Below, one piece after another: positions 3,401 through 63,925 of a DNA stretch of 64,000 nt. The notes beneath the pieces are model-generated. The model saw nothing but the letters and a program-made list of their open reading frames with translations. It did no database searches and had not been told where the DNA came from. Both the position numbers and the translations under genes were made by a program. Origin of the DNA: Nannocystis pusilla (lineage in GTDB: Bacteria > Myxococcota_A > Polyangia > Nannocystales > Nannocystaceae); assembly GCF_049060185.1 (NCBI RefSeq), contig NZ_JBMEQO010000002.1; one strand, 5' to 3'. Within the stretch, counting starts at the first letter, position 1. Each line of letters opens with the position of its first letter.

Positions 3401-6388
3401 TCAGCGATCGACGTGGGCCAGCAGCCAGGCGTCGATCTTCGAGACGTCCTCGTCCGCGTGATCGCCGGCGTAGTCGGCCCGCGCCTCCGACGCCAACGTC
3501 AGCGCCCGCGGACGGTCGCGGCCCGCGACCGCGCGGGCGAGCGCGAACCGCAGCTCGCCGAGATCGATCGGCTGCACGTCCTTGCGGGTGCGGATCGCCA
3601 GCGCCCGCTCGAGCAGCGGCCGGGCCTCGTCGAGGCGCCCGAGCTCGACCAGCGCCACGCCGAGGCCGTGCAGCGGATACGCCACCTCGGGGTCGTCGGG
3701 GCCGAACAGCGCCTGGCCCCGCGCCAGCGCCTCCTCGTAGATCGGCACCGCGCGGGCGTAGTCGTGCTGCAGGTGGTAGCTGTTGGCGAGGTTGTACAGC
3801 GCCTCGACCAGCCGCGCCTCCAGCCCCGACGCCCGCCGCAGCACCCCCGTCGCCGCCTCGAAGTCGCCGCTCGCGCGCGCGTAGTCCCCGGTGAACACCA
3901 GCGCGCTGCCGAGGTTCATCCGCGTCGACGCGATCTCGGGGTGGTCCGGCCCGAGCGTGCGCACGCGGATGTCGAGCGCCCGCTCGAGCGCGGCGATCGC
4001 CTGGTCGAAGCGACCGGCCCGCATCTCGAGGACGGCGATGTTGTTGAGCACCGACGCGACGTCGGGGTGGTCGGGCCCGAGGCGATCCTCGGCGAGCGCC
4101 AGCGCGTCGCCGAAGTACCGGCGCGCCGCCTCGTCGCGCCCGCGCTTGTCCTCGAGCGAGCCGAGCGCGTTGAAGGCCGCGATCAGCAGCAGCCGCGACG
4201 ACGCCGGCGCCGCGCGCAGCACCTCGACCGCCGCCAGCAGCGTCTGGCGGGCGCCCTCGTGCTCGCCGCGGGCCGTCCGCACGATGCCGAGCGAGATGTC
4301 CCTTCGTGCCTGTTCGATGGGACCTGCCCCTACGCGCAGGTCGGTGGCCGCCGCCAGCTGCAGCATCCGCTCGCCCTCGGCGTGGCGCTGCTGCAGCCCG
4401 CCGAGCACCAGCCCGAGCTCGGCCATCGCTTGCCCGCGCATCGAGTCGACCGCGCCGGCCTCCGCCGCCGCGACGGCCCGCGTGTGCAGCTCGACCGCCT
4501 GCTCGAAGCGGCCCTGGTCGGCCGCGATCTGGCCGAGGGTGATCAGCGCCCGCGCCTCGATCGCCCCCGCCCCGATCGCGCGCCCTCTTTCAGCGCGCGC
4601 TCGGCTAGCCCCTGCGCCGCCGCGTACTTCGCCGCGTGCCGCTTGGCCACCGCGTGGGCCAGGATGCCCTCGAGCCGCGCCACCTCCTCGCGGCTGGCGA
4701 GCCCGCGCCCGGGGCCCTGCATCAGCTGCTCGGCGTCGGCGCAGGCCTTCAGGTCGGGCAGCCCCTCGACCGCGACCGCGGCGCGCTGCACCACCTCGCG
4801 GTCGGCCTCGGAGAACAGCGCCGCGGTCGCCTGCAGCTGATCGAGGTGGCGATCGAGGCAGGCCATGCGGCGGTCGAGCAGCAGCGGCGACTGCTCGTGG
4901 TGGACCAGCGACGCCTCGCAGACCTCGCGGCGCATCGCCACCCACGTCGCCGCGTACTCGTCGAGGGCGGCCGTCGCGGTCTCGGCCGCGCGCGCCGCGT
5001 ATGGCTGCCCGGTCTCGAGGAACGCCTGCCGCGCCCGCTCCTTGATCGCCGCGTCCCACACCCCGACGAGGTGGCGGTCCGCGCCCTCGCAGCCCGGCGG
5101 CTTGACCTGCGCCCACACGATCCCGCCCGTCACCGTCGCCGCCACGCCCGCCACCGCCAGCGCGCCGAAGATCGTGCGCCGTCGTCGGTCCGTCGGCGCC
5201 AGCGCGGCCAGCATCGCGTCCATCGATTCGAACCGCTGGTTCGGCTCGACCGCCAGCGCGCGGAGGATCGCCCGCCGCACGTGCAGCGGCACCGACGTGC
5301 GCACCGGCGTCGCGTCGATCTTGCCGCCGAGCACGCTCGTCGTCAGCTGCACGTAGTCTTGGCCGGGAACGGGTGGGCCTTGAACAATGCCTCGAACAGC
5401 GCCACCGCGAACGCGAACTGGTCCGCGCGGGCGTCGACGCGCTGCCCCATGTGCTGCTCCGGCGCCATGTAAGCCGGCGTCCCGACCAGCGCGCCGGTCC
5501 GCGTCAAGCGCATCGACGACAGCCCTGCGATCGCCGAGTCGAGCCCCGTCGCCGGCGCCTGCGAGGCCAGCGCGACCGCCTGCAGCTTGGCCGCCGCCGG
5601 GTCGGTGTCGGCCAGCGGCGCCGAAGGGTTGCCGCGGTCGGTGGTAGCGAACGGCGACAGGCTCGCCGACATCGACGCGCTCGGCGGCGTCGAGATGTTC
5701 TCGGACATGTCCCGAGGGACAGCCGTGAACTCGGGCCCTCCGCGCCGCGGGCGATGCCGAAGTCGACCACGCGCACCCGGCCGTCGCGGCCGACCAGCAC
5801 GTTGTCGGGCTTGAAGTCGCGGTGGACGATCCCGGCCTTGTGCGCGGCCGCCAGCCCGCGGCCGGCGGCGACGAAGGTGTCGAGGATCTCCTGGCTGGTC
5901 CGCTTGCCGTCCTTGAGCCAGCGCGACAGGTTCTGCCCGTCGACCAGCTCCATCGTCAGGTACACCAGCTCGCCGATGCGGTTGGCGTCGTAGATGGCGA
6001 CCACGTTCGGGTGCTGCAGCCTGGCCAGCGCCTGCGCCTCGCGCAGCAGCCGGCCGACGATCTCGTCGGCGCGGTGGCCGGGGCGGGCGTGCATGATCTT
6101 GAGCGCCACCCGGCGGTCGAGCCGCGGGTCGTAGGCGGTGTAGACCACGCCCATCGCCCCCGCGCCGATGCGGTCGAGCACCGTGTAGCGCTCGATCGCC
6201 GCCCCGCGCTCGAACTTGAGCGCCTGGACCTCGTCGATCGACGGCGACTCGACCAGCGTCTCGACCCCGGTCAGGTGCGACTGATCGAGGTCGGACAGGG
6301 CCCCGGTGGTGCTGTGCGCGCTCGGCGGGCCGTCCGCGAAAGGCCCTCGCCCGTCCTCGCCGCCTCGCCCACGCCTGCATGGTATCAA
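3401..6388 (-). CDS. Ser/Thr protein kinase with TM segment and C-terminal TPR repeats; at least 3 frameshifts (~4575, ~5350, ~5740)
   Basis: The kinase domain contains [29 protein letters not shown] and [10 protein letters not shown] (ORFs 5504..7267 and 5343..6587). ORF 4543..5352 carries the end of the kinase domain and a TM helix. ORF 3401..5116 carries TPR_12-type repeats. The start is uncertain (ATG 6380 or TTG 6388). Confidence 0.7.
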
Positions 6389-6581
6389 GGGCCGGCGGCG
6401 TTGTGGGCCTGGAGGCGTGCGGCGCCCCTGTTTGCAGGGAGCGGCTGCAGCGCCGCCGCTGCGGGACGCGAAACGGCATTCGCCGTCCGGGCCTGCGGCG
6501 AACTCGGGGCCGCGTCGGGACCCGGCCGACGCGGCGCGCCGGGCTTGACTCCGCGGCCCTTCGAGCAGGAAAACCTCGGGC

Positions 6582-7839
6582 GTGCACGCCCGCGATCCCG
6601 AGCTCTCCGCCGCCGACCCCGAGATCTTCGCGCTGATCGAGCAGGAAGACGCGCGCCAGCGCGACAGCCTGCGCCTCATCGCCAGCGAGAATACGTGTCG
6701 AAGGCCGTGCTCGCCGCGACCGGCACCAGCCTCACCAACAAGTACGCCGAGGGCTACCCGGGCAAGCGCTACTACGAGGGCATGGACTTCGTCGACCCGA
6801 TCGAGTCCCTCGCCATCGCCCGCGCGCGCGAGCTGTTCGGGGCCGATCACGCCAACGTCCAGCCCTACAGCGGCTCGCCGGCCAACCTGGCCGCGCTGCT
6901 CGCCCTGTGCCAGACCGGCGACACCATCATGGGGCTGGCTCTCCCCGCGGGCGGTCACCTCACCCACGGCTGGAAGGTCAGCGCCACCGGCATCTACTAC
7001 AAGGCCGTCCAGTACGGCGTCCGCCGCGACGACCACCGCATCGACCTCGACGAGGTCCGCAGCCTCGCGCTCGCCAACCGGCCCAAGCTCATCTGGGTCG
7101 GTCACTCGGCCTACCCGCGTCAGCTCGACTTCGCCGGCTTCGCCGCGATCGCGCGCGAGGTCGGGGCCTACCTCGCGGCCGACATCGCGCACATCGCCGG
7201 CCTCGTCGCCGGCGGCGCGCACCCGAGCCCCGTGCCGCACGCCGACGTCGTCACCACCACCACGCACAAGACGCTCCGCGGCCCGCGCGGGGCCTCATCC
7301 TCAGCAAGGCCCAGCACGCGGCCGCGATCGACAAGGCGGTGTTCCCCGGCCTGCAGGGCGGCCCGCACTGCCACACCACCGCCGCCAAGGCCGTCGCCTT
7401 CCGCGAGGCGCTGCAGCCGAGCTTCCGCGACTACGCCCACCAGATCGTCGCCAACGCCCAGGCCCTCGCCGAAGCCCTGATCGCCCGCGGCCACGTCCTC
7501 GTGTCGGGCGGCACCGACAACCACCTGCTGCTCCTCGATCTCACGCCCACCGGCCAGGGCGGCCGCCACGTCGCCCGCGTGCTCAACCGCTGCGGCATCG
7601 AGCTCAACGCCAACGCCATCCCGTTCGACCCGCGCAAGCCGTTCGATCCCTCGGGCCTGCGCATCGGCCTGGCCGCCATCACCTCGCGCGGCATCGAGAC
7701 CCATCACATGCCGGTCGTCGCCGACCTCATCGCCGACGGCATCGCCCTCGCCGTCGAGAACGCCGACGAGGCCCGCTGCGAGGTCCACCGCGGCCGCGTG
7801 CGCGAGTTCCTGCGCGCCTTCCCGGCGCCCGGCCTCTGA
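6582..7839 (+). CDS. glyA: Serine hydroxymethyltransferase; two frameshifts (~6690, ~7285)
   Basis: The three frames join through [18 protein letters not shown], then [28 protein letters not shown], then [14 protein letters not shown] and [10 protein letters not shown]. The GTG start is at 6582. Confidence 0.88.
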
Positions 7840-7863
7840 TCGGCCGCGCCGCCCTCGCCGTCA

Positions 7864-63346: not shown

Positions 63347-63418
63347 ACCGCACGCCTCCGGGAGCCTGGCCCTTCGGCCAGGTTCCCCGCCTGACCGCCT
63401 CCCGTGGTATGGAGGCGC

Positions 63419-63859
63419 ATGAGCCGGATCCGGATCGGCGACACCACCTGGACCTTCCGCAGCGCCTCGCTCGAGCTCTACCATTGCACGAGTCCCGAGG
63501 CCGACTGGAACCTCGCGCTGGACCACGCCGGAGCGACCCTGTGGCTGGCCGGCACCGTCGTCCCCGGGCCGCGCTCGCCCGAGGCGCTGATCGGCGCCGA
63601 GGTGTCGGTCGACCTGCGCTCGCTCGACGAGGTCGCTGGCGCCCTGCTCGGCCGCCACGTGACCCTCTACCCTGGCGGCCAGGACGTGTGCGCGCTCGGC
63701 TTCCGCTTCGCCGCCGCGCCCGGCGGCGTGCGCCTGGCCGCCTCCGCCCGCTGCGACTGGGACCGCTACCTCGAGACCTTCGACCATGACCAGCCGGTCG
63801 ACCTCGAGCTCGAGATCGACGCCGCCGTCGTCGCCCTGCACCCTGGCAGCATGCCCTGA
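63419..63859 (+). CDS. Hypothetical protein
   Basis: A GGAGG RBS lies 5 nt upstream of the ATG. The ORF is 146 aa with no motifs. Confidence 0.45.
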   Translation: MSRIRIGDTTWTFRSASLELYHCTSPEADWNLALDHAGATLWLAGTVVPGPRSPEALIGAEVSVDLRSLDEVAGALLGRHVTLYPGGQDVCALGFRFAAAPGGVRLAASARCDWDRYLETFDHDQPVDLELEIDAAVVALHPGSMP

Positions 63860-63925
63860 CGGACATGCTCCTTCGCGCAGGTCTGTTCGAGCATGTTCGT
63901 ATGGACATGCTCGTAACGAACCCAT
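63860..63925. repeat. Three GRRCATGYTC palindromic units after the last gene
   Basis: The sequence is GGACATGCTCCTTCGCGCAGGTCTGTTCGAGCATGTTCGTATGGACATGCTCG. It shares CTTCGCGCAGG with 15965. Confidence 0.75.

Follow-up and report, generated by a model that had tools for sequence, protein, structure and literature searches.

A Nannocystis-specific family of short palindromes phased at 14 nt, with REP-like placement at the 3' ends of genes

Described families of short palindromic repeats

The REP/BIME elements of Enterobacteria, the REPINs of Pseudomonas, which go with RAYT transposases, and the SMAG elements of Stenotrophomonas are high-copy, lineage-specific extragenic palindromes that lie after stop codons or between convergent genes, singly or in clusters, form hairpins lacking a U-tract, and persist at orthologous positions with local gain and loss. 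IHF and gyrase act on E. coli BIMEs. The DUS of Neisseria and the USS of Pasteurellaceae have a short conserved core (9-12 nt) with free flanks, are distributed genus- or family-wide, and often occur as inverted pairs forming hairpins after genes. The HIP1 element (GCGATCGC / GGCGATCGCC) is spread over coding and non-coding DNA with no hairpin phasing. It is a short, GC-rich perfect palindrome found lineage-wide and conserved in its core only, and methyltransferase-linked creation of such iterated palindromes has been proposed for it in cyanobacteria (Elhai 2015, PMC4390886).

The GGACATGTCC family analysed here in a 64-kb stretch of DNA from the soil bacterium Nannocystis (the whole stretch is referred to as the window) agrees with the REP-type families in the respects listed. 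Unlike those families, in which roughly 20-40 nt are conserved, it is conserved over 10 nt only, its 10-mer is perfectly self-complementary, its units keep a rigid 14-nt register, and about 10% of its sites lie in coding sequence. Among the copies there was no consensus of at least 20 nt, no GTAG next to the units and no master sequence exceeding 10 nt. No RAYT was seen either, in a search with little power to reveal one. The core-only conservation, wide distribution and inverted pairing after genes are shared with DUS and USS, from which the Nannocystis motif differs in being itself palindromic, in its fixed 4-nt spacing, in its lower density (~1 exact copy per 5.8 kb) and in its strong depletion in coding sequence; we know of no report of competence or of an uptake receptor in Nannocystis. 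The motif is like HIP1 in being a GC-rich perfect palindrome, lineage-wide and conserved in its core only; unlike HIP1, it is phased at 14 nt, and 10 of the 11 exact copies in the window are intergenic.

Rho-independent terminators likewise place a GC-rich hairpin just past the stop codon, but they carry a U-tract and do not need a stem sequence conserved genome-wide. The MetJ metbox and omega-repressor heptad arrays also consist of 2-5 short palindromic units in fixed register, and the Nannocystis register equals alternating inverted 7-nt half-units; those arrays mark promoters or centromeres at a single locus or a few, whereas the Nannocystis copies number thousands and lie after genes. Rickettsia palindromic elements (RPE) can sit in frame in protein-coding genes, as one Nannocystis copy does, but RPE are ~100-150 bp long with conserved sequence and the Nannocystis case is an exceptional 24-nt doublet. 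A literature search found no description of the Nannocystis family; all matches to the 10-mer were to the p53 response-element half-site (RRRCWWGYYY), of which GGACATGTCC is the consensus and whose pentamers are similarly arranged. Spacing and context are unrelated and we know of no p53-family protein in bacteria, and the match was set aside as a sequence coincidence.

Unit, register and abundance

The 10-base palindrome GGACATGTCC is built from the pentamer GGACA and its complement TGTCC. Eleven exact copies were observed in the window against 0.06 expected (21 against 1.9 with at most one mismatch), and in-register arrays numbered 27 against 1.8 in Markov controls (multi-unit arrays, 13 against 0), which confirms the dispersed family as real and over-represented. 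By extrapolation, a Nannocystis genome holds ~2,000 exact copies. Half-sites alternate at spacings of exactly 0 and 4 nt, with 171 occurrences each of GGACA-N0-TGTCC and TGTCC-N4-GGACA and three or fewer of every other spacing. The units are thereby fixed in a 14-nt register, and CATG-to-CATG distances in the window peak at 14 nt (15 pairs), 28 nt (10) and 42 nt (10). Because each unit is its own reverse complement, neighbouring units can form a stem of 10-12 bp with a 4-nt loop. The companion motif GACCTGTCTCTCCGGACAT of the preliminary description was found at 40824 and 40915, and the companion form TGTCC-N4-GGACA is the family's own element in the alternate register; neither this identity nor the strictness of the 0/4 spacing and of the 14-nt register had been noticed there. 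Identical sub-units at different loci were also recovered, as shared 16- to 18-mers. Across the copies, conservation of internal sequence or flanks did not extend beyond 10 nt and terminal repeats were not found, which speaks against the earlier suggestion of a transposase-less MITE.

Conservation that stops at a 10-bp palindrome, with flanks and spacers free, would suit a motif read as double-stranded DNA by an abundant dimeric or tetrameric protein, or enriched by a methylation-, repair- or uptake-linked process of the kind proposed for cyanobacterial HIP1 or Neisseria DUS. Variants of this account invoke a nucleoid-associated protein or cooperative, MetJ/omega-like binding to tandem palindromes, with the 3'-end placement being merely where insertions are tolerated. 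It is favoured by the fixed spacing and loop length of 4 nt, far stricter than hairpin stability requires, by the lack of any preference for stable RNA tetraloops among the loops, by the spacer's leaning towards YYRR, a pattern that reads alike on both strands, and by the mechanism proposed for HIP1 (PMC4390886). It lacks a candidate protein or methyltransferase, and we regard it as possible, though clearly less probable than the hairpin-based explanation given below.

Placement relative to genes

Copies lie mostly 6-35 nt past stop codons, above all between convergent genes. At annotated syntenic loci a site was present in 5 of 9 gaps between convergent genes, 2 of 22 between co-directional genes and none of 7 between divergent genes, in agreement with the REP-like placement originally reported; distances at annotated loci were 6-34 nt. 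Of the doublets, 82 were on the 3' side of a gene and 11 on the 5' side, and 62 of 132 lay no more than 30 nt past the upstream stop. In convergent pairs each gene has its own hairpin near its own stop, and sites are depleted ~8-fold in coding sequence, unlike HIP1 or much of DUS/USS; both observations count against a reader of double-stranded DNA. The sites that do occur in coding context favour such a reader, with the N4 spacing found 20 times against 0-3 for any other.

The same distribution bears on the suggestion of an operator through which a global transcription factor would control a large regulon. TGTCC-N4-GGACA shares the 5-4-5 geometry of FNR-type sites, binding at tandem sites could be cooperative, and the gene that starts near 41252 has six companion copies upstream of it. 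Sites are nevertheless depleted on the promoter side overall (9% against 17% of random positions) and in divergent gaps (0.3% against 2.9%), the motif's ATG is generally no start codon, and site positions turn over between species, which makes an operator very improbable.

The loci accepted as robust include the hairpin-forming doublet GGCCATGTCC-gcat-GAACATGGCC, flanked by two minus-strand genes (3332..3359; -26.7 kcal/mol, z -5.2), which the preliminary description did not list. A full unit with a half-unit, GGACATGTCC-cgag-GGACA, lies in another gap between two minus-strand genes (5703..5721) and is kept in Nannocystis sp. RBIL2 (L116 6788). Non-coding gaps hold the doublet GGACATGTTC-atcg-GGACATGTCC, joined by a degenerate third half (9058..9091), and a degenerate five-unit array in the 14-nt register (9714..9779). 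In a convergent gap with a Maf-like gene (13711..13743), GGACATGTCC lies 13 nt past the stop of the gene ending at 13697 and is followed by TGTCC-tcga-GGACA. About 15 nt past the stop at 21049, the unit forms the apex of the extended palindrome CTGGCCGCCAGGACATGTCCTCGCGGCCAG (21055..21084; -30.5 kcal/mol). The cluster at 28089-28316 comprises the doublet CGACATGTCC-gcca-GGACATGTCC, 5 nt past an acyl-CoA dehydrogenase stop (28089..28112), a hairpin whose 13-bp stem carries the unit at the apex, with CAUG as the loop (28120..28152), and the previously reported 28-bp perfect palindrome TGACCGCCAGGACATGTCCTGGCGGTCA, ~22 nt from the end of a convergent Peripla_BP_6 gene (28289..28316). Past the gene that ends at 40747, the non-coding gap holds six plus-strand copies of the companion form CCTGTCYCTYCGGACAT (= TGTCY-N4-GGACA; 40824..41256), partly as a 44-nt tandem repeat; their T.G wobble can pair on the plus (sense) strand only. 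A single unit (42849..42858) lies 7 nt past the stop at 42842. On the minus strand, a variant hairpin, ATGCCC-gatc-GGGCAT (GGGCATGCCC type), lies just past the stop of the gene at 42926-44200 and has a T-rich tail on that strand (42895..42910). An array of five to six units in the 14-nt register fills a convergent gap (48997..49076; -43 kcal/mol, both strands alike), and the degenerate five-unit array GCAGCATGCCC..GGACATGCTC..GAGCATGTTC..GGACATGCTC (63850..63913) begins at the stop codon of a gene that ends at 63859. The robust set is completed by an in-gene doublet (23052..23075), described below.

Most of the loci listed earlier held, and three to five were coincidental. The matches at 15992 and 54379 are Met-Ser start codons (ATGTCC, also present at the former start in a relative), that at 36120 is a one-mismatch match within a conserved coding region, and those at 17785 and 19828 are degenerate single CATGs, the former within the body of a coding sequence and the latter at a coding 3' end. 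Membership is uncertain for TGTCC-gcga-GGACA in a coding region at 17242..17255, which is kept as coding sequence in N. punicea and N. exedens, and for similar in-coding sites at 15073, 22361, 40717 and 51099.

Lineage, turnover and hairpin structure

The window was 97% identical to RBIL2 over the 6.9 kb compared. The family occurs in all sampled Nannocystis species (N. exedens, N. pusilla, N. punicea, N. bainbridge, N. radixulma and sp. RBIL2) and in several MAGs, and ~90 of 120 genome matches to the motif came from Nannocystis or Nannocystaceae. It is absent from the syntenic loci of more distant Nannocystaceae, and one convergent gap measures 254 nt with the motif against 72, 83 and 29 nt in relatives lacking it. 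The family is thus specific to the Nannocystis lineage and, as had been proposed, dispersed well beyond the window. The preliminary interpretation is partly supported: lineage-specific dispersal and placement fit the REP class, and the missing long consensus and GTAG do not.

Turnover included gain and loss of units, local duplication and one in-frame coding insertion. The doublet at 28089..28112 is present in N. exedens; in N. punicea it has lost most of one unit to a gap of one register (13-14 nt), with a degenerate copy remaining. The palindrome at 21055..21084 is kept in N. punicea, N. exedens and L131, with a 66-nt tandem duplication in the first and a sense-strand T.G wobble in the second. 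The doublet at 23052..23075 lies in frame within a minus-strand RimO/MiaB-like radical-SAM gene, in the linker joining two domains, in the window strain, N. punicea and N. exedens; the gene of the more distant L122 lacks it and is 12 nt (4 codons) shorter. Larger tandem repeats of 44 to 151 nt carry the motif, and a site was gained or lost between N. exedens and the window strain. These events, with the lineage-specific expansion and the inflated intergenic gaps, would be expected of a selfish or mutational by-product with no host function. Its units would be spread and made perfect again through replication slippage or template switching at quasi-palindromes, or through a RAYT-like or other mobilising enzyme, and would persist at harmless positions. 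Template switching would also yield complementary double changes in one step. Slippage does not explain the upkeep of one particular 10-mer, loops and flanks are highly diverse around it, unlike a recently replicating REPIN population, and no transposase adjoins the densest arrays. Hairpins are moreover far better kept between species than the adjacent spacer (94% against 54% identity), and a by-product of this kind appears rather unlikely.

At 28120..28152 the hairpin is identical to N. punicea at 31 of 33 positions (neighbouring spacer, 54%), and at 28289..28316 the palindrome region at 32 of 34. Single units with no pairing partner are also kept across species, as at 13711, where the N. exedens unit is conserved at 10 of 10 positions, 6 nt past the orthologous stop, between unalignable flanks. 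Arrays and hairpins folded at -19 to -43 kcal/mol (z -2 to -6). Deviations from the consensus were compensated in the partner unit 96 times and within the same unit 36 times. Three compensatory stem changes were seen between orthologues: an A-T pair became C-G across both units at 3332..3359 relative to RBIL2, and in N. exedens T-A became C-G at 28120..28152 and C-G became T-A at 28289..28316. A protein reading 10 bp is an insufficient explanation for such locus-specific changes in stems extended beyond the core. On the sense strand, G.U was commoner than A.C (35:18 and 40:24 in two counts), again unlike the expectation for double-stranded DNA; the excess is slight (p about 0.03-0.06), and mutation could account for it.

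We favour, with about an even chance of its being right, 3'-end hairpins that form a REP-like family, with a putative factor reading their stem sequence. Two neighbouring units would make up the 10-12 bp stem, with the 4-nt spacer as its loop; alternatively, a lone unit would cap a longer stem peculiar to its locus, with CAUG in the loop. We infer that the family acts at the RNA level, where a 3'-end hairpin with no U-tract may hold back 3' exonucleases, signal pausing or termination, or do both. A reader is implied because conservation is limited to the 10-nt stem sequence, to the exclusion of loops and flanks, and because unpaired units are kept as well; it may be a sequence-specific protein or a copying or repair process that regenerates the motif. 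The conserved unpaired units and the in-coding enrichment would fit a reader of double-stranded DNA at least equally well.

Counted against an RNA hairpin were the missing U-tract, the weak G.U bias, the lack of tetraloop preference, the over-strict loop length, the instability of the isolated companion form (CCTGTCYCTYCGGACAT alone, z -0.16) and covariation at the second pair from the loop, which was not significant. Of the earlier proposal of an RNA hairpin or terminator, the hairpin stood with the folding and the compensatory changes. No U-tract follows the hairpins, which are therefore not canonical terminators, and canonical terminator patterns occurred at chance level only. The hairpins take the position that an ordinary terminator has in a related genus: in the relative L125, the orthologous position is filled by a canonical A-tract/hairpin/T-tract terminator.

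Abundance, register and distribution of the palindrome

A real, lineage-specific family of palindromic units, hairpin-forming by predicted folds, lies after genes in Nannocystis and is both under constraint and turning over. The unit is the self-complementary 10-mer GGACATGTCC, composed of a GGACA and a TGTCC half. The 64-kb window contains 11 exact copies where dinucleotide-preserving shuffles predict 0.06, and copies with up to one mismatch numbered 21 against 1.9 expected, so the motif exceeds chance at the composition of the window (72% G+C), as the preliminary description had implied. 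Two of the loci listed in that description (15992 and 54379) were plain Met-Ser starts and were removed from the family.

The units follow a rigid 14-nt register that was absent from the preliminary description, with CATG-to-CATG distances peaking at 14, 28 and 42 nt (15, 10 and 10 pairs). Spacings were counted in the window and approximately 90 Nannocystis loci (775 kb in total), where GGACA-N0-TGTCC and TGTCC-N4-GGACA each occurred 171 times and every other spacing between 0 and 12 nt occurred at most three times. The companion motif GACCTGTCTCTCCGGACAT is present as had been reported, but it is the N4 arrangement, that is, the same element in the other register and not a separate motif. Chaining in register produced 27 arrays in the window versus 1.8 in controls, and 13 versus 0 when only multi-unit arrays were counted. 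The 4-nt spacer between the two units of a doublet tended toward YYRR, was highly diverse and showed no conservation. No conserved flank of the 10-nt core was found (the commonest 4-nt flank accounted for 9 of 352).

A collection of genomes was scanned with the doublet, which returned at least 120 matches. Among the matches listed, approximately 90 came from Nannocystis or Nannocystaceae (exedens, pusilla, punicea, bainbridge, radixulma, sp. RBIL2 and several MAGs), and the matched Nannocystis loci held additional copies besides the triggering match. Copies are thus found well beyond the window, as every Nannocystis genome sampled carries the motif. The remaining matches were rejected as repeat families, given that each group had a single orthologous coding site with no nearby copies: one conserved locus in Poseidoniales and other archaea (L013, L022, L025, L039, L040, L044, L055, L058, L061, L080, L083, L105) and one in Cellulomonas and an actinomycete MAG (L041, L081, L097, L104, L106). 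A link to phage was also rejected, with one match among 2.9 million viral contigs.

The source is a Nannocystis strain close to sp. RBIL2, to which the first 6.9 kb of the window is 97.3% identical. Comparison of 18-19 kb of syntenic coding sequence gave identities of 93.9% with N. exedens and 92.7% with N. punicea. Syntenic loci of relatives were anchored on the adjacent acyl-CoA dehydrogenase (protein identity). A few copies were present at 81% identity, and neither a copy nor a 14-nt periodicity was found at 74%, 67% or 58% (two Nannocystaceae metagenome contigs and Paraliomyxa). The window's 254-nt convergent gap (28084-28337) corresponds to 72, 83 and 29 nt in these three copy-free relatives. 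In the same gap, a metagenomic relative (L122, 11960-12010) has another kind of short tandem repeat, with about three GCCCGCGGGCCAGTTACC-like copies.

Predicted hairpins, their conservation and their turnover

Adjacent copies of the self-complementary 10-mer pair with each other to give a 10-bp stem in which the 4-nt spacer is the loop, and the flanks of the doublet add about two further pairs. In the alternative form, a lone unit makes up the tip of a longer stem that is particular to its locus, with CAUG as the loop. Folding energies were predicted at -19 to -43 kcal/mol (z-scores -2 to -6), and no stable fold was predicted for the isolated N4 form. Sense strands showed no GNRA or UNCG preference, and stable RNA tetraloops were set aside as an explanation. 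A known RNA family was likewise excluded, with no match at the Rfam gathering score across the whole window.

Pairing was examined through sequence changes. A compensatory A-T to C-G change spans two units at 3334 relative to RBIL2, and the extended stems of N. exedens hold two more, T-A to C-G (28120-28152) and C-G to T-A (28289-28316). Among paralogous doublets, deviations from the consensus had their compensating change in the other unit in 96 cases and within the same unit in 36. One exedens doublet has a G.A pair as a counter-example, and covariation was not significant for the second pair counted from the loop, where the scan pattern permits R/Y. G.U exceeded A.C modestly on the sense strand (35:18; 40:24 in a second count, p = 0.06).

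Motif sites were kept at orthologous positions between Nannocystis genomes. Between the window and N. punicea, the two long hairpins in the 28084-28337 gap are identical at 31 of 33 and 32 of 34 positions, and the spacer between them is 54% identical with many indels. A partnerless single unit was conserved 10/10 between the window and N. exedens, where the gap flanks were otherwise unalignable. Structure alone does not account for the kept 10-mer, the constant 4-nt loop and the conserved partnerless units, and we therefore infer a sequence-specific reader or a regenerating process; the retention of the stem sequence across species also implies a reader.

Such reading could equally take place on DNA, with a protein, methylation or an uptake system acting on the double-stranded motif. 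Two paired units make up the very palindromic duplex that the double-stranded site presents, so this model is kept as a serious rival, possible albeit below an even chance. The family does resemble DUS/USS in its short conserved core with free flanks, found genus-wide in the Nannocystis genomes sampled, and the short core and free flanks also recall HIP1 (PMC4390886). However, DUS/USS, which serve sequence-biased DNA uptake through a dedicated receptor, occur about once per kb and frequently in both coding and non-coding sequence, whereas Nannocystis has about one exact copy per 5.8 kb and only 7-11% of its sites in coding context. A HIP-type palindrome is matched by a methyltransferase cognate to its core and is spread over coding and non-coding DNA; the Nannocystis distribution does not fit such a spread. 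Unlike both systems, the Nannocystis units are phased and largely kept out of coding sequence.

Turnover was evident at several sites. In N. punicea, a 13-14-nt gap at 28089 takes out most of one unit and leaves a degenerate copy, and the 21065 hairpin is duplicated in tandem (66 nt). One site pair of N. exedens has no counterpart in the window, and larger motif-bearing tandem repeats ranged from 44 to 151 nt. The indels observed were register units or local tandem duplications, and nothing was conserved beyond the 10-mer. The MITE interpretation raised in the preliminary description was abandoned on these grounds, as MITEs have terminal inverted repeats flanking a conserved interior of approximately 50-500 bp, with target-site duplications. 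A selfish or mutational origin with no host function would be compatible with such turnover and is kept as a third reading, although we regard it as improbable.

Long intergenic tandem repeats of approximately 37, 73-76, 125 and 151 nt, with one motif copy per unit, were also seen in other loci (L079 4671-5212; L053 3115-3610 and 5952-6184; L094 2831-2988); the L053 repeat unit includes an apparent gene 3' end and its hairpin. In L120 (224-2002), a gene for a four-S1-domain protein (ribosomal protein S1-like) is followed by unusually dense units at 1674-2002 and, further on, by a repeat-rich 3.3-kb non-coding stretch.

Placement after genes and a proposed role at transcript ends

Array placement was compared with 5,000 random positions. 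Both sides were non-coding for 34% of arrays versus 13% of random positions, and the 3' side of a gene was occupied by 33% versus 17%. Doublets favoured the 3' over the 5' side by 82:11, and 62 of the 132 doublets having an upstream gene lay within 30 nt of its stop. In the annotated loci (N. exedens, N. punicea and one metagenomic relative), intergenic sites were mostly 6-34 nt from the nearest stop, and sites were present in 5 of 9 convergent, 2 of 22 co-directional and 0 of 7 divergent gaps. The proposed REP-like placement after genes and in convergent gaps was therefore upheld. The description of the family as extragenic, high-copy and genome-dispersed also agreed with the data, with 10 of the 11 exact window copies intergenic and all sampled Nannocystis genomes positive.

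These counts also bear on the earlier suggestion that the motif is the binding site of a global regulator. Arrays were depleted on the 5' side of genes (9% versus 17% of random positions) and in divergent gaps (0.3% versus 2.9%; none of the seven annotated), which makes a global transcription-factor operator very unlikely.

Coding context accounted for 7-11% of sites versus 49% of random positions, and the coding sites were still well above the background of other spacings. One doublet (23052) lies in frame in the linker of a radical-SAM gene and is common to three Nannocystis species; in a more distant relative without it, the gene is 12 nt shorter there. Several units overlap ORF starts, yet a start-codon or leaderless-mRNA role was rejected since ATGs linked to hairpins looked like coding starts in only 5 of 100 and 3 of 131 cases, versus 17% of all ACATG.

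A GC-rich hairpin, predicted to be stable, directly follows the gene, as with intrinsic terminators, but no U-tract was found 3' of the stem (the 8 nt after 66 sense-oriented doublets contained 1.2 T on average), and canonical terminator patterns in the window were at chance level (scan of 12000-55999, loop limit 3-8 nt). A canonical intrinsic terminator was accordingly rejected. At 62074-62118, about 76 nt beyond the stop codon at 61998, a 17-bp stem of perfect pairing encloses an 11-nt loop (ATCGCGGCAGTGTGACG ... CGTCACACTGCCGCGAT, then TTTCCTTTCGAGATT). This hairpin resembles an ordinary intrinsic terminator and does not belong to the motif family; it is invisible to the scan because of the 3-8-nt loop limit.

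In a relative without the motif (L125), a textbook bidirectional A-tract/hairpin/T-tract terminator (AAAAAGGGCCGGCGC..GCGTCGGCCCTTTCTT, 11864-11935) occupies the position where Nannocystis has motif hairpins, and in the convergent gap at 28084-28337 either gene has its own hairpin beside its own stop. Given the adjacency to stop codons, the single hairpin per gene at convergent ends, the replacement of a terminator relative to L125 and the modest sense-strand G.U excess, the family most likely works at the transcript level, as REP-like 3'-end hairpins.

Relation to REP elements, a candidate factor and gene models

In its behaviour the family comes closest to REP, BIME, REPIN and SMAG elements, yet it fails several membership features. 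It shares with REP/REPIN an extragenic, high-copy occurrence after genes and enrichment between convergent genes. REP/REPIN are imperfect palindromes; they have a conserved consensus over approximately 20-40 nt, a GTAG-type tetranucleotide and a master sequence, whereas the Nannocystis family has only the 10-nt core and neither of the other two: no GTAG-type tetranucleotide was conserved at positions flanking the hairpin, and a REPIN-like master sequence was rejected as nothing is shared beyond 10 nt. REP/REPIN also go with a RAYT gene, which encodes a Y1/HUH transposase and commonly has the repeats on either side; the ten ORFs adjoining the densest arrays contained no transposase domain, a weak test for RAYT restricted to those ten. 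Literature searches for GGACATGTCC returned p53 papers only; the 10-mer and the p53 half-site consensus are identical by coincidence. Searches on Nannocystis and myxobacterial repeats yielded no account of the family.

The hairpin may be read, by both sequence and structure, by a dedicated Nannocystis factor, for example a lineage-specific protein of 3'-end formation or termination, a protein that binds RNA or ssDNA hairpins, or a HUH transposase that has been domesticated. This proposal is tentative and unlikely. The factor would recognise the palindromic stem duplex, as this is identical in double-stranded DNA and in the folded strand. If such a factor exists, a large share of Nannocystis genes would end in protein-read hairpins and not in U-tract terminators.

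Myxobacterial genomes are very large and GC-rich, and to our knowledge little is known of their transcript ends or of how repeats accumulate in them. The family may account for a considerable part of the 3'-end hairpins of one genus. Its extremely simple build, from one pentamer spaced by 0 and 4 nt, allows easy testing by reporters, 3'-end mapping and pull-downs, and the motif is a convenient genus marker. It also calls for caution in gene calling, because each unit has an ATG on both strands.

Several gene-level features of the window were recorded during the analysis. Within 42560-42842 (approximate), the coding signal changes reading frame near 42600, and an amidohydrolase-like C-terminus stops at 42842, not 42918. 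Within approximately 41236-41300, a lipoprotein-type signal (VTILVALAAC) lies near 41260 and has an in-frame start only with an extra base inserted behind the ATG at 41252. The frame anomalies near 42600 and 41252 may be assembly indels or real frameshifts. The 522-aa protein at 39179-40747, for which no Pfam domain was found, contains an in-frame 66-nt repeat of about 2.5 copies (40021-40200). Tandem repeats of 15 and 30 nt (AACGGCATGCGCATG...) occupy 62456-62570, in the first part of the gene called at 62441-63346.
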